A stretch of 64,000 nt of DNA from an uncultured Candidatus Saccharibacteria bacterium. Its GTDB lineage: Bacteria; Patescibacteriota; Minisyncoccia; Phycocordibacterales; CAIZLB01. Below the pieces are notes generated by a model. That model ran no database searches. It was not told where the DNA came from and was given only the letters and a program-made list of their open reading frames with translations. Shown piece by piece: positions 42,807 through 62,064 of the stretch. A program made the translations under genes and the position numbers. Position 1 is the first letter of the stretch, and the number at the start of each line of letters is the position of its first letter. The stretch covers positions 83,497 through 147,496 of the forward strand of contig CAZUJN010000001.1 in the NCBI GenBank assembly GCA_964620475.1, given 5' to 3'.

Positions 42807-42808
42807 TT

Positions 42809-43801: not shown

Positions 43802-43814
43802 GAAAAGCCGAACA

Positions 43815-44988: not shown

Positions 44989-45016
44989 GGGATTATTGTA
45001 GCATTGTGTTTAGAGA

Positions 45017-45069: not shown

Positions 45070-45078
45070 ATGTTAATC

Positions 45079-45603: not shown

Positions 45604-45672
45604 GGTTTTGTTATGTTAGGTTTAACTCAAATACAATACATAAAATATCTAGGTGTGTAAATAGGTGAGATT

Positions 45673-45754
45673 TGACCATTACATGGTCAGTACACCTTTG
45701 CTATTTTTTCAAATTCTGCGAATTTTCGAAAATAAGGTAAAGCTTTTCGAATCT
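45673..45754 (+). repeat. hairpin-containing repeat, copy A (family A/B/C)
   Basis: tgaccattacatggtcagtacacc...gaattctgcgaatt...aagcttttcgaatct. About 80% identical to copy B. Confidence 0.5.
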
Positions 45755-45810
45755 TTAAAAATTCAATAAGTTGAGAGCTCCACAAAGATTGTTTATGATA
45801 TAATCGTTAA

Positions 45811-46410: not shown

Positions 46411-46431
46411 GCGGAGGAGGTGAGATTCGAA
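46411..46431 (-). mobile_element. 21-nt duplicate of the tRNA-Ser 3' end (att-type direct repeat; left boundary of the integrated element)
   Basis: gcggaggaggtgagattcgaa is identical to 61977-61997 inside the tRNA-Ser gene. Confidence 0.6.
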
Positions 46432-46524
46432 GCTTACAGCTTCAGTACCACAAGGGCATTTCTCAGAAATAAAGGAGAACCTTTTCGAATCTCTCGAGGA
46501 AGTGCATAGTTGCACTTCCTCTCC
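46429..46524 (+). repeat. hairpin-containing repeat, copy C (tRNA-Ser-like remnant) of family A/B/C
   Basis: gaagcttacagcttcagtacca...ccttttcgaatctc-tcgaggaagtgcatagttgcacttcc-tctcc. Its 3' block matches copy B. Confidence 0.5.
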
Positions 46525-46695
46525 TTACAAAAACAAAAACACCCTTTCGAATGTTTTGTTTTTTGTGGAGGATCGTAGAGTCTATTCGAACTTATTATAT
46601 TAAAAACAGCGCATAACTATGTAAAGTTAATACGCTGTGGTTGAAAGTTTTAAGAGAGTTGAATTCTACGGTTACTTCACCGAGTGGGTATACCA

Positions 46696-47115
46696 CTATT
46701 TAAACAAGTCTTCACCGGCTAGAAACTTGGGGGTTGTCGGCTCGGAGGTGTAGAGCTTGACCGAGTTTTTGAAGATGCTTGTACCTAACTCCTCACCTTC
46801 AATGCCGATTATCGAGAATGCCAGGATACTTTGATCGAAACCAAAGTTGGCATAGGCGACATACCGTTTGCCGTTTAACTCGACAGTTAGCTTTTCTCCT
46901 AGTTTAAACTGGCCTGTAACTGTCATCTTTTTCGACCGAAAAAGATTATTTTCTGGGATCTTATGCCACAACGAACCCTCAACCCTTCCTGATATGTAGG
47001 CACCACTTACAGGACAACGGGTTATTCTATAGAAAGGGAAATCTTTCCAGAGGGTGGAAATTCCGTCAAATCCAACGAGTGAAAAGTGGGTGAGTGTAAA
47101 GGTCTTGGTTTTCAT
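46696..47115 (-). CDS. hypothetical protein encoded by a GC-rich (~45%) gene
   Basis: 139 aa, no motif recognised. Confidence 0.35.
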   Translation of the reverse strand: MKTKTFTLTHFSLVGFDGISTLWKDFPFYRITRCPVSGAYISGRVEGSLWHKIPENNLFRSKKMTVTGQFKLGEKLTVELNGKRYVAYANFGFDQSILAFSIIGIEGEELGTSIFKNSVKLYTSEPTTPKFLAGEDLFK

Positions 47116-47270
47116 AATGATTGGTGTTTGTTTTGGTTTAATGTGCTTTTCTGTCAGTCACTTGACCAACTGGGTAAAGTATATCATGATATTATATATT
47201 GATATTTTTATAAAACAAACTATATAAATAAATACTTATAAATAAAGGCTATATTAATTTTATATTAATT

Positions 47271-48107
47271 TTGTTCGTAAAAATTGACAAAATTAAATCA
47301 AAAATATACACTATCTACATGAATAACCAAGATCTAAAAACCAAAGTTGAGCGAGCAGGCTTAACTGATAAAGAATCGGCCACATATAGTGCACTTATTG
47401 AGCTGGGCGGAGCTTTTCCTTCCAAAATAGCCGAATATACAAAACTTAATCGAAGTACTGTATATAAGGTATTATTAGATCTTTCTGTAAAAGGGTTGGT
47501 TAGTGAGATAAAGAAGAAAAATAAGTTGTATTATCAGATTGAAAACCCTACTCGACTTGTAAGATATGCAAAAGATAAGGTAAAGATAGCAGAAGAACAG
47601 TTGGAGTACATGTCTAAACTGGTTCCTCAAATAGAAGGATTATATTCATTACTTTCAAATAAGCCAAAGATTTCATATTTTGAAAATATAGACGGCATCC
47701 TTTCTATATATGAGGATCAAATATCGGGAACCAAGAAATATGAAATGTTAGCATTTTCTAATACAACAGAAATAGAGAATGTTTTTCCGAAAGATTTTTT
47801 CACCAGATATAGAAGAGCAAAAGAGAAAATAGGTATTACAACAAGGGGTCTTATTCCTGATACTGAAAGGGATGAATCATTTGTAAATAGAATGTATGAC
47901 GGATATAAAAAAGAGGTTATTCCTCAGGTAAAATATGTTCCAGCAAAAGATTTTCCATTTAAAGGTGAGATTACTATTTATGGAGATAAAAAAGTTTCTA
48001 TTGTAAATCTAAATAAAGAATATTTTACTGGTCTAATTATTGAAGACCAAACAATTCATAACATGATGAGAATGATATTTGAATTGTCTTGGAAAGGGGT
48101 TAAGTAG
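47271..48107 (+). CDS. TrmB-family winged-helix transcriptional regulator (paralogue-like of 26287..27081)
   Basis: 278 aa. N-terminal HTH ESATYSALIELGGAFPSKIAEYTKLNRSTVYKVLLDL. Confidence 0.5.
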   Translation: MFVKIDKIKSKIYTIYMNNQDLKTKVERAGLTDKESATYSALIELGGAFPSKIAEYTKLNRSTVYKVLLDLSVKGLVSEIKKKNKLYYQIENPTRLVRYAKDKVKIAEEQLEYMSKLVPQIEGLYSLLSNKPKISYFENIDGILSIYEDQISGTKKYEMLAFSNTTEIENVFPKDFFTRYRRAKEKIGITTRGLIPDTERDESFVNRMYDGYKKEVIPQVKYVPAKDFPFKGEITIYGDKKVSIVNLNKEYFTGLIIEDQTIHNMMRMIFELSWKGVK

Positions 48108-48118
48108 GGAAATAGATT

Positions 48119-48235
48119 CGGTCCTTACAGGATCAGTACACCTTTTCTCGTTTTATCGAATTCTACGAATTCTCAAAACATAGAAAAGCTTTTCGAATCT
48201 CCCACGGAAGCAAAGCGGTTTGCTTCCTCTTCTCC
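48119..48235 (+). repeat. hairpin-containing repeat, copy B (family A/B/C), followed by a terminator
   Basis: cggtccttacaggatcagtacacc...gaattctacgaattc...aagcttttcgaatctc-ccacggaagcaaagcggtttgcttcc-tcttctcc. Confidence 0.5.
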
Positions 48236-48240
48236 TAATT

Positions 48241-48271
48241 AAAAACAATCACCTGGCGGTGATTGTTTTTC
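48241..48271 (+). terminator. rho-independent terminator
   Basis: caatcacc-tggc-ggtgattg followed by ttttt. Confidence 0.55.
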
Positions 48272-48446
48272 CTAGCGGGCCATGTGAGTTAAGTACCCAC
48301 TGGTACAAGCAGTATAAGGCTTTTTGAGGGGTTTTAGAAGCACCTCCCTGAGGTAAGTGAGTTGGGTATCTAAATGCCAACAAATGCCAATTTTAGAGAG
48401 AATCGGGGTTATTAGAAAAAAGGATAAAAAATGGTAAAATGAGGCC

Positions 48447-49628
48447 ATGATTGAGGATTTAAACAAACACCTAACAGATCAAGAATTCTTCACCTATGCG
48501 AAGTTTTTTGACATGGTTATAAACAAAAAGAACCTCGCTGATGAAGACCAAAGAGAAATTGGTGTATATCAGTTTTCTATTGGCGAAGATGAGTCATATA
48601 GACGATTTCGTAGACTTTTCAATTTCATCAAATACCAAGACTTGCCAGTCAAAATCTCTGAATCAAGATACAACAAACTGGAAGAAATGATTGGTTCGTA
48701 CGCAAAAGGAAAAGACGCGAAAGGTGCAGGAATGCCGACAAAAGAAGATCTAGATACTATTTGCGAAAAGATAAATAACGGTAAGCCTATAAAATTTTCA
48801 GAGACAGGAATGCTGTCATGGGCATGGTTTGAGGTGTATGACTCCACTCATTTTTTGCCACATCAATACGAGATTTCTAATGAAGTAAAATCGAATGTTA
48901 AAAAAGAATTTGATACATATCTAGAGAATCTCATAAACGGCAAGCTCTCTATCGCTAAGGATAACTACTACAAGTTCAACATCCTAAAAGAAGCGTTCAT
49001 CCAAATGATTGAGCGAAAGGGTGTTTTGAAATTATTTGGCAAAAACTTTGTCATCAAAGAAGAATTAAACAATGAAGGAAACCTAAAGAGTGACCCTAAC
49101 TTTTGCATTGTGCAAACGGTATATGCCTTACAACACCTAGGATACCTGACGGTGAACAATATCTGGAGAGATGACGAGTACAAAGAACAATACAGTAGTT
49201 CGAGCAATATCCGATATTTCATATCAATCAATGTGACAATTGAGGATAGTTTCATTTCTGAAATAAACGACAGATACAAGAAAGCGAATCCAAAAAACGT
49301 GATCGAAGGATTCGACAAACCGAAAGGAATCTTAAAATTCGCAGGTGAGGAAATAATCCTTTCACTCAAAGGTAAAGAAACGGATGCATCCCTCCTTATG
49401 AATACCTTGTACAAAAAAGAAGATACGGAATGGATCTATAACGACGAGATTTTTGAGGATTGGAAGTTTAACCAAGCTGACATCCTGAAAAGTCCTAAAA
49501 ACAAGATATATTTCGCTGCCAAAAAGATAAATGAAAAGGTAGCGATGAAGACCAAAATCGAGGATTTTATTGAATTTACCACTGAAAAAGCAAGGATAAA
49601 TCCTCGCTACAACAAAGTTGACGAATAA
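48447..49628 (+). CDS. hypothetical protein (island cargo)
   Basis: 393 aa, GC about 40%, no motif recognised. Confidence 0.4.
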   Translation: MIEDLNKHLTDQEFFTYAKFFDMVINKKNLADEDQREIGVYQFSIGEDESYRRFRRLFNFIKYQDLPVKISESRYNKLEEMIGSYAKGKDAKGAGMPTKEDLDTICEKINNGKPIKFSETGMLSWAWFEVYDSTHFLPHQYEISNEVKSNVKKEFDTYLENLINGKLSIAKDNYYKFNILKEAFIQMIERKGVLKLFGKNFVIKEELNNEGNLKSDPNFCIVQTVYALQHLGYLTVNNIWRDDEYKEQYSSSSNIRYFISINVTIEDSFISEINDRYKKANPKNVIEGFDKPKGILKFAGEEIILSLKGKETDASLLMNTLYKKEDTEWIYNDEIFEDWKFNQADILKSPKNKIYFAAKKINEKVAMKTKIEDFIEFTTEKARINPRYNKVDE

Positions 49629-49719
49629 TATATAAATCGCAATAAATTTTTATAAATAGCCATCATATATCCTGAAGTCATCCTTCGGGATTTATTAATT
49701 AGCTAAATATAAAAGTTAT

Positions 49720-51015
49720 ATGCAAAAGCAAAAACTCATATGGTCAGTTACAACCCGCAAAGTGAGTGATCTGACAAAAAACGGATACAATCCGAGAAAG
49801 ATAAGCGAGAGCGAAAAGAGAGACTTGGAAAAGTCTATTAAGGAATTCGGGACGGTCGTTCCTGTAATCCTTAATATTGGTTTGAGAGCCAATGTCATTA
49901 TCGGCGGTGAGCAAAGAGTAAAGATATATGCTGATCTCGGTATGGAAGAGATCGAGTGTATGGTACCCTCTCGGGAACTGACACCTAAAGAAGAAAAAGA
50001 GCTTAACCTCCGTTTGAACAAAAACACAGGGTCATGGGATGAAAACCTTCTCAAGGAATTCGATATGGACATGCTCCTTGGTGTAGGTTTTGGCGATGAA
50101 GAATTGCAAAGCCTGTTTGATGATGTAGATATGGTCGAGGATGACTTTGATATTGAAAAAGCTGTCAAAGAAACCATAACTGCTAAAGTGAAGACTGGAG
50201 AAATCTGGGAACTCGGAAAGCATAGGTTGCTTGTTGGGGATTCTACTGATGTCACATCCGTACAAAAACTTATGGATGGAAAACTTGCAGACATCGTGTA
50301 CTGCGATCCGCCATACAACATTGGACTCGACTATTCAAAAGGTGTCGGCAACAAAGAAAAATATCAAGGGTCATATTCCGCAAAGGATGATTCGAAAAAG
50401 GATACTGACTATCTCGATTTCATAGATAAAAGTATTGATGTGGCAAAGACCGTAGCCAAGAAGGATTCCCACTTCTTCTACTGGTGCGACTCTTCGTATA
50501 TTTGGATCACACAGAATCTATACCAAAAGCACGGTATAGATAGTAAACGTGTCTGCATGTGGATCAAGAATAATCAGAATCCCACTCACAAGATTGCGTT
50601 CAATAAAGTATATGAACCATGCGTATACGGAACTATCGGCAAGCCATATCTCAATTCAGCAATGAACAATGTTAATGAGATTCTCAATCAGGAAGTGACC
50701 ACCGGCAATCAGGTACATGATGAGATTCTAGACATGATAGATATTTGGATTGAGAAAAGAGACAACGCTCAAACATATCAACATCCAACTCAAAAGCCTG
50801 TAACGCTCAATGAAAAACCACTCAAAAGATGCAGTGCTCCGCTTCATATTGTGTATAGCGGATTTGCGGGTAGCGGTAGTGATTTGATTGCTTGCGAAGA
50901 ATTAAATCGTGTTTGGTATGGAGTCGAAAAGGATTTGATTTTCGCAACCATCGTTATAGACCGATGGGAAAAGTTTACTGGCCTTAAAGCAAAGAAAATA
51001 TATGAAAATAACTAA
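49720..51015 (+). CDS. ParB/Srx-like nuclease domain fused to an N6-adenine/N4-cytosine DNA methyltransferase (DPPY class)
   Basis: 431 aa. N-terminal NPRKISE...IIGGEQRV (ParB-like). Methyltransferase motif IV VYCDPPYNIG and motif I GFAGSGSDLIACEELNR. Confidence 0.85.
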   Translation: MQKQKLIWSVTTRKVSDLTKNGYNPRKISESEKRDLEKSIKEFGTVVPVILNIGLRANVIIGGEQRVKIYADLGMEEIECMVPSRELTPKEEKELNLRLNKNTGSWDENLLKEFDMDMLLGVGFGDEELQSLFDDVDMVEDDFDIEKAVKETITAKVKTGEIWELGKHRLLVGDSTDVTSVQKLMDGKLADIVYCDPPYNIGLDYSKGVGNKEKYQGSYSAKDDSKKDTDYLDFIDKSIDVAKTVAKKDSHFFYWCDSSYIWITQNLYQKHGIDSKRVCMWIKNNQNPTHKIAFNKVYEPCVYGTIGKPYLNSAMNNVNEILNQEVTTGNQVHDEILDMIDIWIEKRDNAQTYQHPTQKPVTLNEKPLKRCSAPLHIVYSGFAGSGSDLIACEELNRVWYGVEKDLIFATIVIDRWEKFTGLKAKKIYENN

Positions 51016-51751
51016 AGGAGATATTTTCAAGATCGGCAATCATATTATCGGTTGTGGTGATTCTACCGACAGAGAATTTGTAGCTAAAGTAATCGGGAAG
51101 AACAAGATACGAGCCATCATTTCTGACCCACCTTATGGAGTTGCATATGTTGAAAACAAGAAAGGCTTTGCGAAACTTGGTGTTAAGGACGAGAAAATAA
51201 TTGTCGGCGATCATTTGCAGAGCGAATCTGAATATGAAGATTTCACCAGAAAGTATCTTGGTGCCGTTATTCCATATCTCGATGACTACAATGCATGCTA
51301 CATATTTAACGCCGATCCGATGTTTCCATCTCTCCGTAAAGGCATGAAAGATGCGGGTTTCTATTACAGCCAGATGATTATTTGGATTAAGAATCAACCT
51401 GTCATGAGTAGAAAAGACTACCTTTCGCAATATGAACTAATTGCATATGGATGGTTTGGCAAGCACAAAATGGAAAGATCTAAATCAAAGAATGTTATTT
51501 ATCACCCACGACCAAACAGATCAAGACTTCACCCTACACAAAAGCCGATAGGGCTACTTAGAAAGATAATTCCAGACGCAACATGCGTCGGTGACTTTAT
51601 CTATGATCCGTTTCTCGGAAGTGGATCAACTGCTATTGCATCGGAACATTTAGGTCGAAAATGTATCGGTATAGAAATAGATGAAGTGTATGTTTCCGTC
51701 GTTCTACAAAGACTTGAAAAGCTAACTGGTCAAAAACCAATAAAGATATAA
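51002..51751 (+). CDS. N6-adenine/N4-cytosine DNA methyltransferase (DPPY class)
   Basis: 249 aa. ISDPPYGVAY and DPFLGSGSTAIASEHLGRKCIGIEID. Confidence 0.85.
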   Translation: MKITKGDIFKIGNHIIGCGDSTDREFVAKVIGKNKIRAIISDPPYGVAYVENKKGFAKLGVKDEKIIVGDHLQSESEYEDFTRKYLGAVIPYLDDYNACYIFNADPMFPSLRKGMKDAGFYYSQMIIWIKNQPVMSRKDYLSQYELIAYGWFGKHKMERSKSKNVIYHPRPNRSRLHPTQKPIGLLRKIIPDATCVGDFIYDPFLGSGSTAIASEHLGRKCIGIEIDEVYVSVVLQRLEKLTGQKPIKI

Positions 51752-51755
51752 CAGT

Positions 51756-52130
51756 ATGAACGAGGAAGACTTCATAAAAGATCCATACAAAAAGCAAACA
51801 TACGATACGTATGCTCTTTGGAAGTCTCTGCCCTCATTTCTCAAGGGACAGCCGAGAGTTGCTCTCGAAAAGTTTGGTATTAATGAAGAAATTGTATTTG
51901 AGTTGCTATCCATAAAAAATCAAACTGAGTTCTCAAAAATATACAAAACAGATGTCGGCACATTGACCGACTGGAACAAGAGACTTGAGAAAGATGGATT
52001 GACTAAAGACATCAACAGCTGGGCAAGAAAGCTTACTCCTAACGTCATATTTGCCCTGTATAAAAATATCACAAAGCATGGTCGAGCTCATGAGGTGAGA
52101 GCATGGTATGAATTAATTGAAAACAACTAA
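51756..52130 (+). CDS. hypothetical small protein with a possible HTH
   Basis: 124 aa. TEFSKIYKTDVGTLTDWNKRL is HTH-like. Translationally coupled to the methyltransferase genes. Confidence 0.35.
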   Translation: MNEEDFIKDPYKKQTYDTYALWKSLPSFLKGQPRVALEKFGINEEIVFELLSIKNQTEFSKIYKTDVGTLTDWNKRLEKDGLTKDINSWARKLTPNVIFALYKNITKHGRAHEVRAWYELIENN

Positions 52131-52326
52131 TATGAAAAACATTGATCTAAAAGAAATAAATATCATTCTCTCTGACACATTGCAAAAAGTTGTGAATAGA
52201 GAGATCTCACATAAACAAGCGAACATGGTCGCTAAGCTTGCCTCTACACTTTCTAAAAACATTGTGAATACCGAACTCAAAGAGCGAGTTGAATTTTTGG
52301 AGCAAGCACTTAAAGGAAAGAAATAA
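52117..52326 (+). CDS. hypothetical small helical protein
   Basis: 69 aa. Overlaps its neighbours by 14 nt upstream and lies 3 nt from the next gene. Confidence 0.3.
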   Translation: MKTTNMKNIDLKEINIILSDTLQKVVNREISHKQANMVAKLASTLSKNIVNTELKERVEFLEQALKGKK

Positions 52327-52328
52327 TT

Positions 52329-53813
52329 ATGAAAAATCTAGCAAACCTATTAAGAAAAGCAGACATCACTCCAAGAGAAAGAATGATAACCTTGGTGCAA
52401 AATAGTGTTTATAAAGAAAAGGACGGCAAGAGTATTCTTTCCGAATCGGAGATATATTCTTTGACGGAGGGGTGGAAGCCGAAAACTTCTCAGGAAGTAA
52501 GGGAGTATAACAAGTACTTGGAACTGTCTAAACTAGAAGCTTCGATGAGATTAGATGCTCAAATGTTTGCGTGTAGATCCGAGAATCTGCTACTACGAAG
52601 TCATATACTGATTGAGGGAATAAAAAGTGATATAGGAAAAACTCATGATGCAATTTTAGATAAATATGTATCAAAAGAAGATGCCCTGAACTTTGTCATA
52701 CAAAATACTTATCTCGACTATTCAACGCTTGTTCACATACTCACTTTCAACAACCTACCGAAAGATATTCAGGATGATTTGATTATGTTAGATGAGTATG
52801 TAGCACATGATAAAAAGTATTTGGAAGATGAGGTCTTTCTTTATGAATTGTTCAAAGATTCAAGTACTCTAAATACAAAAGATAAAAATATCTTGATAGA
52901 CCGTATCTATTCGTGTATGTATCACGATGGTTTTAGAAAGATTAAAAATGGAACAGAAAAAGATGGTTTCTTGCCACTCCATTTCTTTGCTGAGTTACCA
53001 ATGGATGCTGTGCTGAAAAAATGGGCAGAATACAGCCAGACAGATATCGAGGGGAAAGATAATGGTTATATACTAGATAAATTTGAGGAGTACGCAAAAA
53101 GTAGAGGTAAAACCATGGAGATATTTGTAAAGGAAACACTATCGAAGTGGATAGATGAAGGTTTGTTTGTGTCGGAATATACCCCAGTATTTTTTAGTAA
53201 TAAACACAATACATGGAATGGTGATACTAAATTTATACACAAAGAGATTTTTACCAAATGGCACGAAGAATTACAGAAGACCAAAACATCGATAGACAAA
53301 ATGGGTGCTAATGGAGATTTGGTTGTGGAGCAATTTGATAAGGAAATTTTTGGAACCACAGAGAAGGTTCAGATAGTTACTGGGGAAAGTTTGTATAGAT
53401 GCAAATCTGATATTGACTTTGTGAATGAATACAAGGAGCAGGTGACTGTACTCCTACCTATCGCAGGGACGTGTTTGTTTATGAAGAAATATAATAAGCC
53501 GTTAGATAATCTTGAAACACTAAAATGTTTTTACGAATTATCTAAAACATTTTCGGATGTATTTGAAATTGATATGTCAGATAAATATGATGATTTTGTG
53601 AGTTCGTTTGAACAGGAGATCAAACTCATCAATCATTCAATATCCATTGCATTAGATAATGTGAGTGGTTTTATATATACAAAAATGAACAAAAAATACC
53701 CAATAGAGATCATCGAGAATAATTTTACTTTTGATATTGATACAGAATCAGAAAATAAAGCCGATGGTATTATTGAAAGTTATAAAGGAGCATTTCAGAA
53801 AATTGGGTTTTAA
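52329..53813 (+). CDS. hypothetical protein (494 aa), island cargo
   Basis: No Walker, nuclease or HTH motif recognised. Last gene of the plus-strand methyltransferase operon. Confidence 0.4.
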   Translation: MKNLANLLRKADITPRERMITLVQNSVYKEKDGKSILSESEIYSLTEGWKPKTSQEVREYNKYLELSKLEASMRLDAQMFACRSENLLLRSHILIEGIKSDIGKTHDAILDKYVSKEDALNFVIQNTYLDYSTLVHILTFNNLPKDIQDDLIMLDEYVAHDKKYLEDEVFLYELFKDSSTLNTKDKNILIDRIYSCMYHDGFRKIKNGTEKDGFLPLHFFAELPMDAVLKKWAEYSQTDIEGKDNGYILDKFEEYAKSRGKTMEIFVKETLSKWIDEGLFVSEYTPVFFSNKHNTWNGDTKFIHKEIFTKWHEELQKTKTSIDKMGANGDLVVEQFDKEIFGTTEKVQIVTGESLYRCKSDIDFVNEYKEQVTVLLPIAGTCLFMKKYNKPLDNLETLKCFYELSKTFSDVFEIDMSDKYDDFVSSFEQEIKLINHSISIALDNVSGFIYTKMNKKYPIEIIENNFTFDIDTESENKADGIIESYKGAFQKIGF

Positions 53814-53815
53814 GA

Positions 53816-54568
53816 TTATTTACCCTTCCAGTGCACCGCTCGATTTTCGATAAACATCATTATTTTGTTGAGAGCAAAACCAATCACACCAGTCATGAGG
53901 ATGGCGGCATACATATCTGCTGTTTGATAGACTAATTGTGCATCAATAATGCGTTTTCCAAGCCCAGCATTGGTCCCAATAAACATTTCAGTCACGATGA
54001 CAATTATAAGTGAGAGTGAAATTGCCACACGAAAACCTGAAAAGATTTGTGGTAATGCTTCTGGAAAAATCACTTTGCGAAAAAGTTCGAATCCTTTTAC
54101 TTTCATTGTTTTAGCGACACGCACTCGTAATTCCTTGCCGAGATGTACCCCATACATGGAGTTTATGAGAATGACCAATCCTGCACCCCAAGCAGTGACA
54201 GCAAATTTAGCCTCATCGCCGATTCCAAAGACAAGGAGAAACAGTGGGAAAAGCGCAGTCGTTGGAATACCTCGAAAAAACTCGACAGTAAATTCAAGAG
54301 CGTTATAGACTTTGCTTGAGTAACCCATCAGAAGACCAAGTGGGACTCCGATAATAGTTGCAAAAATAAAACCAACAAGAACACGATACAGGGTGTGTCC
54401 GATGTCGCTTAACATTGATCCATTCAGTAGTGAATCAATGAGGTGATTGGAAACATCATATGGAGATGCCAAGAATAAAGGACTGACAAGTTTGAAATAT
54501 GAAATGATCCACCAGAGGCAGAGTAAAATTGTCGGTATGAGTATGTAATATAATTTCTTATTTTTCAT
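53816..54568 (-). CDS. ABC transporter permease (NitT/TauT, SsuC/TauC/ThiX-like)
   Basis: Likely start MKNKKLYYILIP. Six TM helices and an EAA-like loop. Confidence 0.75.
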   Translation of the reverse strand: MKNKKLYYILIPTILLCLWWIISYFKLVSPLFLASPYDVSNHLIDSLLNGSMLSDIGHTLYRVLVGFIFATIIGVPLGLLMGYSSKVYNALEFTVEFFRGIPTTALFPLFLLVFGIGDEAKFAVTAWGAGLVILINSMYGVHLGKELRVRVAKTMKVKGFELFRKVIFPEALPQIFSGFRVAISLSLIIVIVTEMFIGTNAGLGKRIIDAQLVYQTADMYAAILMTGVIGFALNKIMMFIENRAVHWKGK

Positions 54569-55310
54569 ATTCGAAGGTATTAAGAATTGCGTTTCGAAGT
54601 TCAGTAAATTCAGGACTTGAAAGCATATCAAGTGTTCGAGGACGAGGGAGTTTTACTTCAAAAATCTTTTTAATTTTTGCTGGTCGTGGAGACAGAACAA
54701 TCACTCTATCAGCGAGAAATATAGCTTCGTCAATATCATGACTTACAAACAAAGTTGTTATTTTTTTCTCTTGCCAGATATCAAGAAGCTCCAACTCCAT
54801 TTTTCTAGTAGTTGAATAATCAAGAGCAGAAAATGGCTCATCCATGATCAGAATGTCAGGATCATAAGCAATTGAACGACATATAGAAACAAGTTGACGT
54901 TGTCCCCCAGAGAGTTCATAGACAAATTTATCCTTTGAATTAAGCAAACCCACTTTATTTAAAAGATGCTCGGCAATTTTGTATTGTTTTTCTTTATCTA
55001 CTTTTGCTATTTCAAGCGGAAATATAATATTTTCTAAAACGGTTCTCCAAGGAAAAAGACTTTCGTTGTAATTCTGAAAAACAAAACCTACTTGTGCATC
55101 CTTTGGGTTTTTACCGCTAACCATGACTTCACCTGATTCAGGAGTTTCAATACCAGCGACGATATTAAGTAGCGTTGTTTTACCTGATCCATTCGGACCA
55201 AAAACAGTTACAAATTCTCCTTTATTAACTTCAAGATTAATACCATCAATAACCCTGGTGTCGCCAGAATCTTTTTTAAAGGTTTTAGTTATTCCAACAA
55301 GTGAAATCAT
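54558..55310 (-). CDS. ABC transporter ATP-binding protein
   Basis: 250 aa. Walker A GPNGSGKTTLL, signature LSGGQRQ, Walker B ILIMDEPFSALD. Confidence 0.85.
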   Translation of the reverse strand: MISLVGITKTFKKDSGDTRVIDGINLEVNKGEFVTVFGPNGSGKTTLLNIVAGIETPESGEVMVSGKNPKDAQVGFVFQNYNESLFPWRTVLENIIFPLEIAKVDKEKQYKIAEHLLNKVGLLNSKDKFVYELSGGQRQLVSICRSIAYDPDILIMDEPFSALDYSTTRKMELELLDIWQEKKITTLFVSHDIDEAIFLADRVIVLSPRPAKIKKIFEVKLPRPRTLDMLSSPEFTELRNAILNTFEYEK

Positions 55311-55316
55311 TACCGT

Positions 55317-56273
55317 TTATTTGTAATATGCGTTAGTTAAATCTGGTTTTGATTTGAACTCTCCAGAAGCCACTAAAATATCAAGCAACTTATTGGTTAA
55401 AGTTTTATCAATCTGTTGTGAATTTCTAAAATATGTCATTCCGAGAACGTCGACAACTTTCTGGTCTAGCTTAAAGATTGTTTTTGTCATACCCCTAACA
55501 TCTTTGTCGTTGGTACGTAGATAATCAAAGGCCTTATCAAAAGCATTAACTACTTTTTTTGCTTCACGTGGATACTTATTTACAAACTGAGTGCTTACAA
55601 GTGCTACCCCCAATGGGCTGTGATCTAACTGTTCAGAATAAACAGAACCATAGACCTTCCTTATTCCACCGCTTGTAAGTGCGATAGATATTGTTGGTTC
55701 ATATGTGAATAAAGCATCAATCGATCCTGCGGTAAGTGCTGTGAGATGTTGTGGTGGTGGTAATTGCACAAACTGAATAGTAGAAGAATCAATGCCTTTA
55801 TCTTTTAGAAAAAGTTTAAACATATTTGAAGCACTTGTACCTGGGAATACTCCGATTTTTTTACCTTTCAAATCCTCAAGGGTCCTAATAGGAGAGCTTT
55901 CCTTTACCAAAAGAGAATCAAATGGAACGTCACTTGTAATGTCAGTTAAAGCGATAATTTTCATTTTTCCAGGATCAACCATTTCTGCGTTTAAATATGG
56001 AAGTATAGAAATTTCGGGAGTAACATCTATATCACCTCGTGCAAGTGCATCAACAATTTGATTTGAGGTTTGAAGTAGTGTGGTTTGAACAGTAATGCCC
56101 TGATCCTCAAAAAACTTTTTTTGCTGAGCAATCTCTAAAGGAAGTTGGCTTGCTGTAATCGGTAAATACCCGATTTTTACAACATAATCAGACGGTTTAT
56201 TAGATCTTAAAAAAAATACGCTGAGTATAACTAAAATTATAAGTGTTCCGATGATTAAAAATGGTTTTTTCAT
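55317..56273 (-). CDS. ABC substrate-binding protein (NMT1/THI5-like, SsuA/ThiY-like)
   Basis: Likely start MKKPFLIIGTLIIL (signal anchor), then a periplasmic-binding-protein type 2 fold. Confidence 0.65.
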   Translation of the reverse strand: MKKPFLIIGTLIILVILSVFFLRSNKPSDYVVKIGYLPITASQLPLEIAQQKKFFEDQGITVQTTLLQTSNQIVDALARGDIDVTPEISILPYLNAEMVDPGKMKIIALTDITSDVPFDSLLVKESSPIRTLEDLKGKKIGVFPGTSASNMFKLFLKDKGIDSSTIQFVQLPPPQHLTALTAGSIDALFTYEPTISIALTSGGIRKVYGSVYSEQLDHSPLGVALVSTQFVNKYPREAKKVVNAFDKAFDYLRTNDKDVRGMTKTIFKLDQKVVDVLGMTYFRNSQQIDKTLTNKLLDILVASGEFKSKPDLTNAYYK

Positions 56274-56422
56274 AGTAATAAAAATTAAGTTATTAATAAA
56301 ATTTCCTGTTTTAAAAGATGGTCTCATTGTACCATAAAAAATGACTTTTCCATAATTAAAATACGCCCAAAATAAATTTAAGCGTCATAACCCCTATTCA
56401 AATTACTAACTATTAAAAATAG

Positions 56423-57121
56423 TTACAAAACATTGTTCTCCTTACCCAAAACCACCCGATTAAGATACATGAAAGGAATGTTTATTAGTCCGACTAACCA
56501 TTTGACAGCAGTTTGTCCAATTATAAGGGGCATTATTGGTAAGGCTCCCAAGAAAGCTATTGGAATAAATATTAGACTATCCAGAAGTAGTGCTGGTATC
56601 GAACTGAAGACATTTCTTGCCCATAAATGTTTGCCTTTAGTAAATTTTTTGAACCAAGCATACACATATGCATCAAAATTCTCAGTTATAAGGAAGGCAA
56701 TCCAGCTAGCAATGGTAATCCTTGGTACTAGATTGAAAATTTGTTCCCATGATCCCTGCATTGTCCAAAATGGTGCCGCAGGCAATTTTACACCAAGCCA
56801 AAAGAAAAACACCATTGCGATTTGAGATACAAAAGCAATGAGAATCATTTTTGATACTTCCTTTCTACCAAATTTTTCATTTACAATATCTGTAAAAAGA
56901 TACGTGATAGAGAAAACAAGTACTCCACTCGGACCAAAGAATGTGCTGAATCCCAGATCGAAAGCAGAGATCTTGGCGGCTAAGACTTGGGCTACAAGAA
57001 CAAACGTGACGTATAATCCAATAAGTAAATCCGATCGGTTATATTTTCGAGCATACAAACTCCCGAGAAGTGTAAAACTAGTGATACCTACAATCCAGAT
57101 AATTAATAAGTATAAGCTCAT
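56423..57121 (-). CDS. yhhQ: YhhQ/COG1738 (VUT family) transporter, a queuosine-precursor (preQ0/preQ1) transporter family
   Basis: 232 aa, about six TM helices. YLFTDIVNEKFGRKEVSKMI matches the conserved YhhQ TDxxNExYG motif. Confidence 0.65.
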   Translation of the reverse strand: MSLYLLIIWIVGITSFTLLGSLYARKYNRSDLLIGLYVTFVLVAQVLAAKISAFDLGFSTFFGPSGVLVFSITYLFTDIVNEKFGRKEVSKMILIAFVSQIAMVFFFWLGVKLPAAPFWTMQGSWEQIFNLVPRITIASWIAFLITENFDAYVYAWFKKFTKGKHLWARNVFSSIPALLLDSLIFIPIAFLGALPIMPLIIGQTAVKWLVGLINIPFMYLNRVVLGKENNVL

Positions 57122-57128
57122 ATATTAT

Positions 57129-57848
57129 TTATAATAACTTAATTCTATAATTTATCCAAATAAAACCCCGCTCGTTTCTCTCTTGTTTTGTTTCTATCTT
57201 GTATCCGTACTCGGTCATCATTTTTTCTAGAACTTCAAAATCATATCGGGGTTGAGAAGTTCCTGCACTCTGTAAATTTGCATGGGGTAAGGTAATAATA
57301 CCGTCATTATGTAAAAAATCTTTTGCATCATTAAGAAATCTTTTATGTACAGTGAAATTGTTATCATAGAGCGCCCGATCAATTAAGTCGTTTCCACCAT
57401 CAAAATTGACAAAGGGTAAATTTGCGATAATCAGATGGTATTTTTTATCAGATGGAAATTTTGAAAAAAGATCAGAATAGAAGGTTGATATTTTATTTTG
57501 TAAACCGTTTAATGAAACATTGTGTTCAGTGCATTTAATTGCTTCCATGTTAATGTCGGCAGAGTCAACGTGCTTTGCGCCTGCAAGAGAAGCAACTATT
57601 GACTGTACACCTGTACCACAACCTATATCTGCAACTTCTAAATCACTTAAATTTCCAAATGCTTCAAAAACAGATTTTGAACTGGGGGTATAATCGGGTG
57701 GAAAGACGCTGGGAAAAACATCGATAGGAACAATCTTGTCTCCAATATTCAAGCTTATTCTGTAAATTCCATCCTTACTTTTATTTTTCAAAAAAGAAAG
57801 AAATTCTTGAGTATGTTTTGGATTGATTTTTTCTATGTGTGTAATCAT
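57129..57848 (-). CDS. SAM-dependent methyltransferase, small-domain (RsmC/RlmG/PrmC-like) type
   Basis: 239 aa. VADIGCGTGVQSIVASLAG (motif I), HLIIANLPFV (NPPY-like motif IV), preceded by VFPPDYTPSS. Confidence 0.55.
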   Translation of the reverse strand: MITHIEKINPKHTQEFLSFLKNKSKDGIYRISLNIGDKIVPIDVFPSVFPPDYTPSSKSVFEAFGNLSDLEVADIGCGTGVQSIVASLAGAKHVDSADINMEAIKCTEHNVSLNGLQNKISTFYSDLFSKFPSDKKYHLIIANLPFVNFDGGNDLIDRALYDNNFTVHKRFLNDAKDFLHNDGIITLPHANLQSAGTSQPRYDFEVLEKMMTEYGYKIETKQERNERGFIWINYRIKLL

Positions 57849-57853
57849 ATTTT

Positions 57854-58174
57854 TTAATCCTCAATCCAAACCTGTGCTGGACGATGTGCATCAGAATGTT
57901 TTATGTCAATAAATATTTTTAGATATTTAGGTTTAATAGATTCTTTTACTTGCAGATAAATTTGATGGGCCAACTCTTCAGCAGTAATTTTATTTTTAGC
58001 AATTTCATTTACAGCTCGCTCAGCATCGACATATTCAAGAACTTTCTTCTTGGGATAGTACTCAACGATAACATCACCAGAAAACTCTTTATCCGTAACC
58101 GAACAAATTGCCTTAAACGGTAAAAATATCTTTGTGCCACTGATCTTGAAATTTAATGAGATTGTTTTAATCAT
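57854..58174 (-). CDS. T-fold protein, QueF-like
   Basis: 106 aa. LPFKAICSVTDKEFSGDVIVEYYPKKKVLE aligns with QueF [30 protein letters not shown] (Cys conserved). The QueF E(S/L)K(S/A)hK(L/Y)(F/Y/W) motif is not preserved. C-terminal LKIFIDIKHSDAHRPAQVWIE is a T-fold-type strand. Confidence 0.4.
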   Translation of the reverse strand: MIKTISLNFKISGTKIFLPFKAICSVTDKEFSGDVIVEYYPKKKVLEYVDAERAVNEIAKNKITAEELAHQIYLQVKESIKPKYLKIFIDIKHSDAHRPAQVWIED

Positions 58175-58175
58175 T

Positions 58176-59081
58176 TTATTGTAAGTTATGTTTGATAATA
58201 AAAATTCTAAAATTTGCAGGGATACTCCTTACTTTTGTCATATTGAGTTCATGTTTTTGTGCAAATTCGGACATTTTTTTGTATATAAAATCTCTATCCT
58301 CAGAACTTAAACCTGCACTGAACACATTATACGTTCCTTCTTTTATTGAATAAAGAAGGTCATTGAGTTGATATTTTCTTTTCCATGATAGTGCTTTATT
58401 TGAAATAATCTTGAACAAAGTAAATTTTTTATCTGCACAGATATATTCCACAGCTTTTGTAGCATCGCCTGCGGGATACTTTCTTTGAACAAAAGGCTTT
58501 TTGAGATTAACTCTTAAAGAAAAATAATATTCAAAAAGAAGCTCTAGGTCCTTATCTATAATTGGGCTATTAAAAATTTGTTCAATCCTATCTTCTATCT
58601 GACTATTTTCATCGCCAGTAATAATATAACCACCAGGCTTAGATAAAGATTTTATCTTATTCAAAGCTTTTTCTGGAGAATTAAAACAATGAAGAATTGC
58701 TTTGAAGTGCACAATACTATACTGTCCTTTAAATTTAAGAACGTCTCCCAAAATTATTCGGGTTTTATCTTTAACATATTTAGACACAGCCTCATACATT
58801 TTTTCACTATAATCTATTCCATAAATCTCAGCCTTTGAATTTAAATTCAAAAGGGGTATTAAAAACAAGCCAGACCCAAAGCCAACATCTAGAATGTTGT
58901 CACCGTCTCGTGTTAAACCAATGGCTTGAGATGCATATTCTTTCTGTATAGATTTTGGGAATAATCGCAAAATCTCGTACTGTTGTTGGTTTATTTTTTT
59001 GTAGGTATCCCGCGTAGACATAAAAGTACTGTACCATAAAATTATCCTTTTGTGTAGCCATTTAAATATTTTTTCTATCAA
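58176..59081 (-). CDS. class I SAM-dependent methyltransferase
   Basis: 301 aa. ILDVGFGSGLF (motif I) and GGYIITGDE. Confidence 0.55.
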   Translation of the reverse strand: MIEKIFKWLHKRIILWYSTFMSTRDTYKKINQQQYEILRLFPKSIQKEYASQAIGLTRDGDNILDVGFGSGLFLIPLLNLNSKAEIYGIDYSEKMYEAVSKYVKDKTRIILGDVLKFKGQYSIVHFKAILHCFNSPEKALNKIKSLSKPGGYIITGDENSQIEDRIEQIFNSPIIDKDLELLFEYYFSLRVNLKKPFVQRKYPAGDATKAVEYICADKKFTLFKIISNKALSWKRKYQLNDLLYSIKEGTYNVFSAGLSSEDRDFIYKKMSEFAQKHELNMTKVRSIPANFRIFIIKHNLQ

Positions 59082-59147
59082 AAGTTACCAACTCCTGCCG
59101 TGTGAGACGCCTAGACTTCCTCAGGGGTTTGCGTCATCAATGTAGGT

Positions 59148-60473
59148 ATGAAAACAACAGCACCAACAGGCTATGAAATGGCCCAAACAACACAATTAGT
59201 AGCAAGTTTGAAATACTGCCTTTATGCACGTAAATCGACAGAAAGCGAGGAACGGCAAGTCCTCTCTATAGACAGTCAGATTAAGGAGATGTTACAACTG
59301 GCAGAACGAGAGAATCTGGATATCGTGACAATGAAGCGAGAAAGTCACTCGGCAAAAGAAACTGGACAAAGACCAGTATTCAACGAGATAATCGATGAAT
59401 TAAGAGCTGACAAATACAACGCAATCCTCACATGGGCACCCGACCGTATCTCAAGAAACGCAGGAGACTTAGGAAAAATCGTTGACTTGATGGATGCGGG
59501 TAAACTACACCAAATCAGGACATTCGGACAGACATTTTCAAACAATCCGAATGAAAAATTTCTTCTAATGATTCTTGGATCACAAGCAAAGCTTGAGAAC
59601 GACAACCGAGGGATTAATGTAAAACGAGGACTGCGAACAAGAGTAGAGATGGGATTGTGGCCAGGAGTTGCACCTCTTGGATATTTGAATCAAAGGGATA
59701 TCGACAAGAAGTGTCAGCTCATAGTCGATCAATTGAGAGCACCACTGGTAAAAAAAATATTTGAAAAAGTGGCATATGAAAAATTAAGCGGAAGAAAGAT
59801 ATATAATTGGCTTCGATTTGAAGCCAATTTCTATACCAGAGGAAACAAACCTCTGACACTCGCAGGAGTATATAGGATCATAGAAAGCCACTTCTACTAT
59901 GGGATGTTTGAATATCCAAAAGACAGCGGTAACTGGTATACAGGAAAACATGAACCATTGATTACCAAAGAATTATTTGATCAGGCTCAAGCCCAAATGA
60001 AGCGTGACAACATACAACGAGAGAATAAAGAATTTGCATTCACTAAATTATTTACATGCGGATACTGTAGTAGTGGAATATCAGCAGAAGAAAAATGGAA
60101 GCAACTCAAGGATGGAACGCATGCAAAATATGTATACTACTCATGTGCGAGATCGAGAGACAGGAACTGTAAGAACAAATATATACGAGAGGAGGATTTA
60201 ATTATCGAGATGTTAAAAATACTGGACAAGGTAAATATAAACGAGCTAGGCATGAGGCAAAAGCTTGAGGACGAGATAGCAAGATTCAACATATTCCAAA
60301 GGTCGGTGCTCGGAAGTACTGACAAGGTTGGCAACAGAAAAGATACTGATATACGAAACTATGCGAAGTATATTCTCAAAGAGGGAGCGGTTACTGAAAA
60401 GCGAGAATTGCTAGCGAACTTGAGATCGAGAATAGCATATAAAGACAAAGAGCTGACATTAATCGAAGAATAG
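59148..60473 (+). CDS. large serine recombinase (resolvase N-domain, recombinase domain and zinc ribbon)
   Basis: 441 aa. YARKSTESEERQVLSIDSQ (Ser nucleophile), GLWPGVAPLGY, CGYCSSG...C. Confidence 0.8.
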   Translation: MKTTAPTGYEMAQTTQLVASLKYCLYARKSTESEERQVLSIDSQIKEMLQLAERENLDIVTMKRESHSAKETGQRPVFNEIIDELRADKYNAILTWAPDRISRNAGDLGKIVDLMDAGKLHQIRTFGQTFSNNPNEKFLLMILGSQAKLENDNRGINVKRGLRTRVEMGLWPGVAPLGYLNQRDIDKKCQLIVDQLRAPLVKKIFEKVAYEKLSGRKIYNWLRFEANFYTRGNKPLTLAGVYRIIESHFYYGMFEYPKDSGNWYTGKHEPLITKELFDQAQAQMKRDNIQRENKEFAFTKLFTCGYCSSGISAEEKWKQLKDGTHAKYVYYSCARSRDRNCKNKYIREEDLIIEMLKILDKVNINELGMRQKLEDEIARFNIFQRSVLGSTDKVGNRKDTDIRNYAKYILKEGAVTEKRELLANLRSRIAYKDKELTLIEE

Positions 60474-60482
60474 ATTTTAATA

Positions 60483-61871
60483 CTACTTGTACTGTGCGTG
60501 AATGTTTTTAACATAATCATCCGCAATTTGTAGTATTTCACTGAAAGTAAGTATTTCGATGTTTTGTAGAGAATTGCGAAGTTTTGTGAAGTCTCTTTTG
60601 AGACTTTTTTCTTTTATCTTATTTAGCTTACTTTTTGTCAGTTTGTGATCTGAGGAGATTATAATAATTCCCCTTGGGTGGTAAAGGTTTTCTTCTTCAG
60701 TCATATTGGTAATCTTATTTTCATCAGAATTATTTTGAAATCGTTTTTGAACGATAGCGTCCATGTAATTCATGGTCTGAATTACAGCCCTGCTTAATTC
60801 AGAAGAAAAACTAAAATTCTTATGAGAGGAATCCCAAGTCACAGCATTTTTTAAATGTGTCTTAATCTCAATAATATCGAGACCGTTGTAGTGATTAATT
60901 CCAATAAAATCTGGGTATTTTTTGTCGCCATCAATGTCTTTGAATTCAATTTTTGGATATATTCTTTTATACGAGAAAACAAGATAAAGAAGATATTTTT
61001 CAAAATACTTTTGCCAGAGATTTTCCAGCTGTTTTATTTCAGAGTTGTTATCTGTAATTTTTGAGATTATTTTCTTCGCTTTCTCTGTCTCCATATCAGT
61101 AGTTCCCAGAGTTAGAATTTCTCTACCTAAAGCAATAATATCTTTAAGTTTTTCCTTGATAAAATACTCATCTAATGCTCTTAAAAAATCAGGGGAAAAT
61201 ACTTCGTCTTTAATTAGCTTATCCGTAAAATACTCAAGATTTTTTATATCTTCTATATCTAGAAAGTTATCATAATCTTTCTTTTTGTTCTTATTTTTAA
61301 GATTAAATCGTTCAACCATGAAGGAGAAATCTCCTTTGCCAATAGTTGTAACTTCTTTGGGTGCTTTACTGGTATATTTTAGCTTAAGCTTGTTTATCAA
61401 AAAAGTTTCAATACGATCCCTACTAGATTTACCTTTCTTAAAAACATCGTATGAATCACTTAAAATATCAATCAAAATTGGTTCAGGTATTTGAAGCATC
61501 TTTTCATTGGTTTTTCGTAGAATCTTTTTGCCAGTATTTAAAACTTTAATCTTTGAAAATGTGTCATCAATACCTAGAATAAGTTTTATGTATTGAAACC
61601 ACGGGATATTATAATCACTACCATATCTGGTTCTTAATACATTATCTATGTTTACCTTATCTGAAATAATCAATGACTGTCTATTGTTTGTTTTTTCATA
61701 ACTGTTTTGTTGGCGATTGTAATAATGAAAATCAATAAGCACATCTTTCTTATTAAAAATAACCACATCACCAGAAGGGCATAAAATTTTATTGTCTTCA
61801 AAAATCATCCCAGGCCAATTTAGAGATTGAAAAAATTCGACTATTTTCTCCTTTTGTGTTTTTTCTTCCAT
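60483..61871 (-). CDS. Shedu/DUF4263-like PD-(D/E)xK nuclease-fold protein (candidate antiphage defence)
   Basis: 462 aa. C-terminal YPDFIGINHYNGLDIIEIKTHLKN is a PD...(D/E)xK motif. Located between the recombinase and tRNA-Ser. Confidence 0.4.
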   Translation of the reverse strand: MEEKTQKEKIVEFFQSLNWPGMIFEDNKILCPSGDVVIFNKKDVLIDFHYYNRQQNSYEKTNNRQSLIISDKVNIDNVLRTRYGSDYNIPWFQYIKLILGIDDTFSKIKVLNTGKKILRKTNEKMLQIPEPILIDILSDSYDVFKKGKSSRDRIETFLINKLKLKYTSKAPKEVTTIGKGDFSFMVERFNLKNKNKKKDYDNFLDIEDIKNLEYFTDKLIKDEVFSPDFLRALDEYFIKEKLKDIIALGREILTLGTTDMETEKAKKIISKITDNNSEIKQLENLWQKYFEKYLLYLVFSYKRIYPKIEFKDIDGDKKYPDFIGINHYNGLDIIEIKTHLKNAVTWDSSHKNFSFSSELSRAVIQTMNYMDAIVQKRFQNNSDENKITNMTEEENLYHPRGIIIISSDHKLTKSKLNKIKEKSLKRDFTKLRNSLQNIEILTFSEILQIADDYVKNIHAQYK

Positions 61872-61882
61872 TACTGCATTTT

Positions 61883-61914
61883 ACCAAAAAACAGCAGATT
61901 AATCTGCTGTTTTA
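61883..61914 (-). terminator. terminator hairpin downstream of tRNA-Ser
   Basis: aacagcagatt/aatctgctgtt palindrome with T6 on the minus strand. Confidence 0.45.
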
Positions 61915-61974
61915 GGGCAATCGGGTCGCACTACTTGCTCAGGCAAGTGGGTTGACGCCGATAAAAAATTGTGT

Positions 61975-62064
61975 TGGCGGAGGAGGTGAGATTCGAACTC
62001 ACGGGACCCGTAAAGGCCCTCCTGTTTTCAAGACAGGTGCAATCGACCTCTCTGCCACTCCTCC
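61975..62064 (-). tRNA. tRNA-Ser (anticodon TGA) with encoded CCA
   Basis: 90 nt. Acceptor ggaggag/ctcctcc, anticodon arm cctgt-cTTGAaa-acagg, long variable arm, T arm gtgag-ttcgaat-ctcac. Confidence 0.85.

Follow-up and report, generated by a model that had tools for sequence, protein, structure and literature searches.

We analysed a window of 64,000 nucleotides (nt) from an uncultured Candidatus Saccharibacteria bacterium (assembly GCA_964620475.1, contig CAZUJN010000001.1). In it, positions 48279-61976 very probably form a 13.7-kb cargo island that owes its position, at the outermost 3' nucleotides of a tRNA-Ser(UGA) gene, to the large serine recombinase it encodes. On the plus strand, the two cores flanking the island occupy 48275-48278 and 61977-61980, and these positions set its extent. 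A site-specific, recombinase-bearing island at this tRNA had been proposed by a first-pass annotation of the same DNA, together with a search for an empty tRNA-Ser site in related genomes. That site is empty in the close relatives L030, L021 and L016, which upholds this part of the proposal. Overall, the observation made by that annotation was confirmed, and its interpretation was partly supported.

Related genomes were scanned with the 5' part of the tRNA, yielding 46 loci. Locus L030, which lacks the element, is 100% identical to the window over a 180-nt stretch that takes in the tRNA, up to its CCGC end, as well as the RuvX-side flank, and 94% identical in the flank containing EamA and o166; a terminator and unrelated DNA directly follow its tRNA. 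Loci L016 and L021, whose flanks are 75-77% identical, have the order tRNA, terminator, a structured module (described below) and then the genes of the window's left flank. In element-free genomes the native tRNA-Ser genes mostly end in ...TCCGC without CCA and are followed by a terminator. An exact-protein look-up of RuvX gave no match, and the 168-aa left-flank protein was found in the same strain only (L001, L002); the L001 contig breaks 17 nt past the repeat and is uninformative. With a slash marking the junction, attB of the empty locus L021 reads CTCACCTCCTCCGC/tagtaaaaacaatcatcgcaaggtgattgtttttt (shorter form of the right half: tagtaaaaacaatcatcgcaaggtgattg). In the window, attL reads CTCACCTCCTCCGC/caacacaattttttatcgg and attR reads CTCACATGGCCCGC/taggaaaaacaatcaccgccaggtgattgttttta (shorter form of the right half: taggaaaaacaatcaccgccaggtgattg), and the sequence beyond the left end of the island is ~90% identical (31/35 nt) to the tRNA-Ser trailer of L021. 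Set against attB of L021, the window junctions fit a simple insertion. The core shared by the three sites is not the 21-nt repeat but only 4 nt, CCGC, as short as expected for a serine integrase.

Both ends of the island are conserved in related elements. Aligning 45 loci (recombinase identity 65-100%) at the terminal CCGC of the tRNA gave the consensus ...GGTTCGAATC..C....CTCCGC/CAAGACAATTTAGTATCGG. To the left of this junction, T-stems and acceptor strands differ with the host tRNA, and to the right an arm, here called P', is conserved along with the recombinase. A hidden Markov model (HMM) of P' matched the window once (61917-61976). The other end, X, is a conserved non-coding sequence that an alignment showed to be common to three elements (the window, L014 and L078), and its HMM also matched the window once (48271-48396). 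In at least 12 loci the HMM located X on the upstream side of the recombinase, with a constant orientation relative to it; besides the window these include L007, L063, L069, L078, L084, L089, L095, L113, L115, L128 and L130. X also occurs in L036, which has no recombinase. Pairing X with the tRNA delimits complete elements of 3.9, 4.8, 6.3, 11.9, 12.0, 13.0 and 13.7 kb. X always ends in CCGC, and what comes next is either a native-type terminator or another P' arm; the latter arrangement indicates a tandem array. The coordinates of the island and its surroundings are collected in Table 1. Two other proposals about P' were dropped. The hairpin of P' was considered as a whole palindromic att site and was abandoned for a half-site reading because the host DNA junction lies at CCGC. 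Degenerate P' arms were also suspected after each module, but the HMM gives one copy in the window, and the likeness seen by eye after modules A and B was unconfirmed.

Table 1. Features of the tRNA-Ser region (window coordinates; CM, covariance model; HTH, helix-turn-helix; ORF, open reading frame).
Feature	Position	Strand	Evidence
Module C, 5'-truncated, degenerate	45656..45784	-	CM 72.7 bits; HMM match
Module B, last 21 nt (46411-46431) = left repeat	46411..46527	-	CM 98 bits; fold -43.8 kcal/mol, z = -4.6
Older layer between modules A and B: TrmB, 47271-48107 (+); 139-aa ORF, 46696-47115 (-)	46696..48107		Pfam
Displaced native tRNA trailer: terminator hairpin + module A	48102..48274	-	90% identical to L016 post-tRNA-Ser sequence, 81% to L021
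Module A, 3' end degenerate	48102-48235	-	CM 121 bits
attR core CCGC	48275-48278	-	end of X; att comparison with L021
X, left (P) arm, ends in pseudo-tRNA-Ser 3' half GTGGGTACTTAACTCACATGGCCCGC	48275..48396	-	alignment A2; HMM
393-aa ORF, first gene inside left end	48447..49628	+	no match: Pfam, PHROGs, PADLOC, NCBIfam
Semi-conserved block: ParB_N-methyltransferase, methyltransferase, 124-aa HTH protein, 69-aa ORF, 494-aa orphan	49720..53813	+	
ParB_N + N6_N4 methyltransferase	49720-51015	+	Pfam, PADLOC, PHROGs
Second N6_N4 methyltransferase	51002-51751	+	Pfam
Variable cargo (next two rows and genes named in the text)	53816..59081	-	Pfam, NCBIfam
ATP-binding cassette (ABC) transporter: permease, ATPase, NMT1-type binding protein	53816-56327	-	Pfam
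Vut_1, queuosine-precursor transporter (Vut_1/YhhQ family)	56423-57121	-	Pfam
Large serine recombinase, 441 aa; only gene common to all family elements	59148..60473	+	PF00239, PF07508, PF13408
Shedu-type nuclease (SduA_C), slot between recombinase and tRNA	60483..61871	-	PF14082, E = 2.3e-18
Terminator-like hairpin, element-supplied, for tRNA transcript	61884..61913	-	fold -20.4 kcal/mol, z = -7.2
P' arm: CCA, then ACACAATTTTTTATCGGCGTCAACCCACTTGCC...	61917..61976	-	alignment A1; HMM; consensus of 45 loci
attL core CCGC (tRNA sense), host tRNA/element junction	61977..61980	-	identity with empty L030, L021 ends exactly there
tRNA-Ser(UGA), intact; 3' half = host (B) arm of attachment site	61975..62064	-	ARAGORN

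The identification of a large serine recombinase near the tRNA-Ser gene was borne out by Pfam, which recognises Resolvase, Recombinase and Zn_ribbon_recom domains in the protein. The resolvase catalytic domain (PF00239) was matched at E = 1.1e-19 and the C-terminal PF07508 and PF13408 at E = 1.2e-13 and E = 1.2e-06, respectively, and the PHROGs match was phrog_95 integrase (E = 5e-59). The closest solved structure is the SPbeta integrase (9dxh; E = 1e-10). A YxRxS motif is present as Y26-x-R-x-S30, with Ser30 aligned to the catalytic region of the SPbeta integrase. From its three-domain architecture and this motif, the recombinase looks complete.

This protein belongs to a large family. Its database homologs number more than 8000, of which the best 120 are 81-97% identical; Nomurabacteria, Colwellbacteria and Parcubacteria are among the many Patescibacteria lineages represented. 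In three unrelated genomes, a minus-strand tRNA-Ser gene follows the recombinase gene at a distance of 1.1-1.9 kb downstream, and the cargo differs from one to the next: type I restriction-modification (RM); type II RM with AlwI; and a diversity-generating retroelement (DGR) with a helicase/methylase. A metagenome scan added 80 further recombinase loci, 40 of them with any downstream tRNA. The first downstream tRNA was a minus-strand tRNA-Ser in 38 of the 40 and a tRNA-Asp in 2, and the anticodons of the 38 tRNA-Ser genes were gct (12), gga (10), cga (8), tga (6) and act (2). The homologous recombinases therefore face the 3' end of tRNA-Ser, whatever its anticodon. Across 86 related loci the recombinase alone is universal. 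It is comparison between genomes that establishes the insertion, both conserved ends and the link between recombinase family and tRNA-Ser. Literature searches returned no account of tRNA-Ser-specific serine integrases in Patescibacteria.

ARAGORN repeatedly predicted tRNA-Ser genes with the anticodon ACT (A34), an unusual anticodon for bacteria (L007 12443-12532, L041 6126-6213, L062 12522-12611, L065, L070, L077 and L087). Several of these genes in Patescibacteria loci are used as integration sites.

The family also appears to be old. The recombinases of four loci (the window, L003, L007 and L009) share 85-89% protein identity and 38-46% identity at four-fold synonymous sites, and the host flank proteins RuvX and PilM are ~30% identical in the one pair compared (window and L003). 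Conserved proteins with near-saturated synonymous sites indicate an old family under very strong purifying selection. Selection of this kind is exceptionally strong for the integrase of a mobile element.

Other relatives show the same site or the same recombinase in different states. At L036 (CAZSTO010000018.1; PilM 93% identical), tRNA-Ser is followed by an 871-nt cassette without a recombinase, consisting of a P' variant, a single ORF and X. By eye only, this ORF resembles a nucleotidyltransferase. Locus L138 encodes a recombinase (P0002) 97% identical to that of the window, with a P' arm 91% identical, and shares the semi-conserved block with its 124-aa, 69-aa and 494-aa proteins. The remaining cargo of L138 (NUDIX, a 1351-aa protein and others) has nothing in common with that of the window and includes no Shedu, and the recombinase abuts a tRNA-Ser with another acceptor stem (CGTCTCC). 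In six Logan assemblies (L138-L143), the contigs bearing the 97%-identical recombinase end 140-143 nt past its stop codon, inside tRNA-Ser. These breaks probably reflect a repeat or population heterogeneity at the junction.

From these comparisons a mechanism can be proposed. In the circular form of the element, attP would consist of the pseudo-tRNA arm X (...GTACTTAACTCACATGGCC-CGC) joined to the P' arm (CAACACAATTTTTTATCGG...), with the predicted junction ...CTCACATGGCCCGC/CAACACAATTTTTTATCGG. The host attB would be the T-arm and acceptor 3' strand of tRNA-Ser plus the trailer, and excision is predicted to restore it as ...CTCACCTCCTCCGC/TAGGAAAAACAATCACC. Strand exchange would take place within the shared CCGC, with the crossover probably at CC, tRNA positions 71-72, midway between the inverted motifs GTACTTAA and TTTAGTAT. 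Read by eye, attP has the form GTACTTAA-N10-CC-N10-TTT(A/T)(G/T)TAT, a dyad centred on the CC of CCGC. The tRNA body would stay host-derived, and its CCA, new trailer and terminator would come from the element. Cargo would be swapped freely: Shedu, two DNA methyltransferases and transporters here, RM or a DGR elsewhere. We infer that the window recombinase is the catalyst, that the crossover falls at this exact dinucleotide and that excision may occur in the present day, for which a directionality factor would be needed.

To the left of X lie tRNA-mimicking modules, which bear on where the island ends. A conserved module of 115-135 nt comes after tRNA-Ser and its terminator in relatives that lack the element. 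In order, it comprises a 5' strand matching the acceptor (GGAGGAG), a hairpin, an antisense copy of the T-loop/T-stem (GTGAGATTCGAA), a core, a hairpin with a TGTAA loop and a 3' end identical to the last ~21 nt of the tRNA. The conserved core and the hairpin that follows read GATTCGAAAAGC ... GGTGTACTGA-hairpin-TGTAA. A covariance model (CM) recovered more than 20 copies, three in the window and more than 17 in related genomes (L013, L016, L020, L021, L035, L037, L044, L054, L087 and others), with lengths of ~115-200 nt. Of 21 modules, 15 lie 18-58 nt downstream of a same-strand tRNA, which may be Ser-tga, Ser-act, Arg-tct, Arg-gcg, Val-tac or Lys-ttt. The antisense segment of every such module agrees with the tRNA that it trails, as does the 3' end (22/22 for the tRNA-Val of L035). 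Five of the six exceptions (window modules A, B and C, L014 and L078) are separated from their own tRNA by a recombinase element, and the sixth, in L041, lies 4 kb away. In the four module helices, 93% of cells are paired compared with 68% in shuffles, and 20 of 25 pairs change on both sides. The covariation score was 0.505 against 0.144 in shuffles (0/500 reached it) and 0.05-0.12 in slid controls, for an alignment that was fitted to the model. Rfam searches of the modules and neighbouring loci returned only tRNAs and sub-threshold noise, and counts of G-U against A-C pairs gave no clear bias as to strand. Identification as a tRNA, tRNA-Sec, tmRNA or hammerhead was rejected, with ARAGORN and Rfam negative and the motifs unfit.

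In the window, the displaced trailer left of X has a hairpin of -17.2 kcal/mol followed by module A, which suggests that insertion of the recombinase element separated the tRNA from the module A that had trailed it. Older layers of this hotspot are probably represented by modules B and C and the intervening TrmB, 139-aa ORF and 168-aa AAA-like ORF. In L078, the 3' end of a module runs straight into a P'-type arm, so such a mimic end is probably usable as a secondary attB. The tRNA-trailing modules could constitute a new class of structured element, each copying the acceptor/T helix of its own tRNA, a proposal we put forward tentatively and with some doubt. Possible roles are as tRNA-mimic RNAs processed by tRNA enzymes, or as decoy or secondary landing pads for tRNA-Ser-specific serine recombinases, as in L078 and perhaps after module A.

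Several points weigh against an island bounded by X and P' and moved by its own recombinase. Neither a circular junction nor, among the small ORFs, a candidate directionality factor was detected. Both the CC crossover and the dyad symmetry rest on reading by eye, and a consensus terminator scanner flagged no terminators, though the hairpins fold strongly. The near-saturated synonymous sites suggest that most recombinase copies are old residents, which may no longer be mobile. In addition, it is module B, 1.87 kb beyond X, that carries the perfect 21-mer, whereas module A, the inferred original neighbour of the tRNA, is degenerate. The age of the family could also mean that the recombinase is a fixed, vertically inherited and domesticated gene at a tRNA-Ser hotspot, the island being immobile as a unit and its cargo turning over by other means. 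High identity among its best homologs across Patescibacteria classes, saturated synonymous sites beside host flank proteins of ~30% identity and the failure to recognise any transfer or replication genes (Pfam, PHROGs) all agree with this. However, the island is present or absent at the same site among close relatives, a 97%-identical copy sits at a different tRNA-Ser with different cargo, and the P' and X arms are co-conserved and occur in tandem arrays, as expected of an active integration system. We therefore regard domestication as unlikely.

The alternative left boundary is the 21-mer itself. The first-pass annotation had noted that GCGGAGGAGGTGAGATTCGAA occurs exactly twice, at 46411-46431 and 61977-61997, and this was reproduced, with both copies on the plus strand and up to 3 mismatches allowed. 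Its placement of the right copy inside tRNA-Ser(tga) also held, as ARAGORN puts this gene on the minus strand; the 21-mer is thus the reverse complement of the T-loop, the T-stem 3' strand, the acceptor 3' strand, the discriminator G and the first C. From the repeat, a single 15.6-kb element (46411-61997) had been drawn; on this model the 21 nt would be the att core, the crossover would fall inside the T-loop-to-acceptor segment and the left copy would be the displaced tRNA end. The repeat is indeed exact and unique, none is expected by chance (0/100 shuffles contained a match), and L078 is alike, in that 21 nt of its tRNA-Ser(gct) 3' end recur without mismatch 13 kb away, past the recombinase. 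The left copy, however, is not a plain tRNA fragment: it is embedded in a conserved structured module (20/22 positions of the scored module B window match the tRNA 3' end), and a module with the same 21-mer adjoins tRNA-Ser in the element-free L013, showing that the sequence was already duplicated without any island. The left end conserved in the family is X, starting at 48275, and beyond it comes the native trailer of empty relatives. The stretch from 46.4 to 48.27 kb gave no HMM match to P' or X. In 45 loci the tRNA stems left of CCGC vary with the host, so a tRNA 3' half supplied by the element would mismatch. An element bounded by the 21-nt repeat is therefore highly improbable. GC is raised in the element as claimed, but the contrast is smaller than the 38-40% against ~30% stated (35.4% against 29-31% in the flanks), 40% being reached in two 1-kb windows only. 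A value of 36.8% occurs at 42801-45610, outside both the proposed and the recombinase element, in DNA common to relatives (90-95% identity of o166 and EamA to their counterparts in L030 and L036), so the island cannot be delimited by GC alone. The 21-mer and the modules might instead be attR scars of a second integrative family with a T-loop crossover like that of tyrosine integrases, leaving 46.4-48.3 kb as a nested remnant. Repeats of ~20 nt from the T-loop to the 3' end are the classical core of tRNA-integrating tyrosine-integrase elements, and each module's 3' end matches its own tRNA. Yet no phage-integrase domain was found in the ~25 ORFs at 42-62 kb (Pfam, PADLOC, PHROGs, NCBIfam), and most modules lie close behind a tRNA, the short spacer being a terminator-like hairpin where examined. 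Every module also has the antisense copy of the tRNA end, and compensatory change in the four helices is strong. We consider scars of this kind quite unlikely, and favour the 13.7-kb island between X and P'.

The cargo of this island agrees in part with what had been listed for the longer element. Methyltransferases, Shedu, transporters and TrmB are all present, but TrmB lies outside the left end X; from the conserved X and the location of the left 21-mer in a module, both TrmB and the 139-aa ORF fall outside the recombinase element. The two methyltransferase genes (49720-51751) have a 14-nt overlap, one PADLOC type II methyltransferase model matches both, and no cognate restriction enzyme was recognised near them. 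They recur in ~10-12 of the 86 loci, and the remaining window cargo is essentially unique among these, save for weak (29-34%) ABC-ATPase matches. In L003, the counterparts of the 124-aa and 494-aa proteins of the semi-conserved block are 84% and 45% identical, respectively. The 494-aa protein (52329-53813) has ~130 homologs, all in Patescibacteria, and its AlphaFold model (predicted local distance difference test (pLDDT) 91) is mostly helical, with no fold match in PDB or BFVD. It travels with the 124-aa HTH protein and the 69-aa ORF, beside the two methyltransferases. The 393-aa ORF has no homolog among the family loci compared, and, apart from a weak HTH, searches of Pfam, PHROGs, PADLOC and NCBIfam assigned no family to the 393-, 139-, 124- and 69-aa ORFs. 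The nuclease gene between recombinase and tRNA is recognised as Shedu by eight PADLOC SduA models (best E = 6e-13). Besides the transporters, the variable cargo includes an MTS methyltransferase, a 106-aa FolE/QueF-like protein and an S-adenosylmethionine (SAM) methyltransferase. The stretch 56423-59081 thereby combines a queuosine-precursor transporter, a 106-aa protein of FolE/QueF fold and two SAM methyltransferases, a gene content that suggests 7-deazaguanine salvage or modification on the island. A DGR (bAvd + RVT_1) is carried as cargo at the same tRNA-Ser/RuvX site in L003 (3628-5028; GCA_964562615.1). At the conserved edge of the variable region, an EamA-type transporter is split into overlapping ORFs (43310-43975 and 43815-44333), probably a frameshifted gene.

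The customary view assigns ORF targets to serine integrases and tRNA sites to tyrosine integrases. Here, a very large family of compact 441-aa serine integrases is found at the 3' end of any tRNA-Ser, with an attP arm that imitates the tRNA. The family is seemingly undescribed, large and highly conserved in Patescibacteria, and it appears to be a main vehicle for defence systems (RM, Shedu) and DGRs in these largely uncultured bacteria with tiny genomes. The predicted attP and attB are short and concrete, making them directly testable as parts for genome engineering. If functional, the modules would represent a new type of non-coding element linked to tRNA genes. For island finders, the region is a caution that the longest exact repeat beside a tRNA is not necessarily the att site.

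Among known systems, the modules resemble tRNA-like domains (the tRNA-like domain of tmRNA, viral tRNA-like structures and acceptor-T minihelices) in that their ends pair into acceptor and T stems. Unlike these, each module copies the tRNA immediately upstream (Ser, Arg, Val or Lys), and the modules have no Rfam match, no anticodon and no D arm. The island itself shares with tRNA-integrating islands and tycheposons, which use tyrosine integrases, a site-specific position beside a tRNA, modular cargo for defence and nutrients, and tandem accretion. In tycheposons, however, the crossover lies inside the tRNA and the 3' part is regenerated from a long repeat, whereas insertion of the island leaves the tRNA body intact, with CCGC as the whole of the shared sequence; a tyrosine recombinase was not found, and the 21-nt repeat lies in a module independent of the island. 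Of the 937 elements (tycheposons and cryptic elements) counted in the tycheposon study, 27 carry a large serine recombinase; the recombinases reported at tRNAs were mostly of the tyrosine type (10.1101/2020.12.28.424599). With the large serine integrases of phages (SPbeta SprA/YokA, phiC31, Bxb1 and TP901-1) the recombinase shares domain architecture, catalytic motif and a very short attP/attB core, but the site it uses is the 3' end of a tRNA instead of an ORF. PHROGs matches were limited to methyltransferase, ParB and integrase, with no structural genes, so nothing marks the island as a prophage. The 124-aa protein has no relative in IMG/VR, indicating that the element is not catalogued as viral. 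The staphylococcal cassette chromosome (SCC; SCCmec, with Ccr recombinases) offers a further parallel. Both are cargo cassettes without transfer genes, in both a large serine recombinase targets the 3' terminus of a conserved housekeeping gene, and both show short direct repeats, tandem or composite arrays, recombinase-less derivatives and free cargo exchange; the recombinase-less mini-cassette of L036 is analogous to pseudo-SCC elements. The island differs in its target (tRNA-Ser, not rlmH/orfX), its single 441-aa recombinase, its attP arm mimicking the target tRNA and its Patescibacteria host. Its best NCBIfam match, CcrB, scored 121.7 bits against a cut-off of 900, and CcrA (60.6 against 700) and CcrC (52.8 against 900) also fell below theirs. 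Structural kinship with SPbeta and a sub-cut-off CcrB match indicate that it works like both systems and is a member of neither named family. Collectively, the island is best read as an SCC-like cassette moved by a compact serine integrase, with the T-arm and acceptor 3' strand of tRNA-Ser as its putative B half-site.

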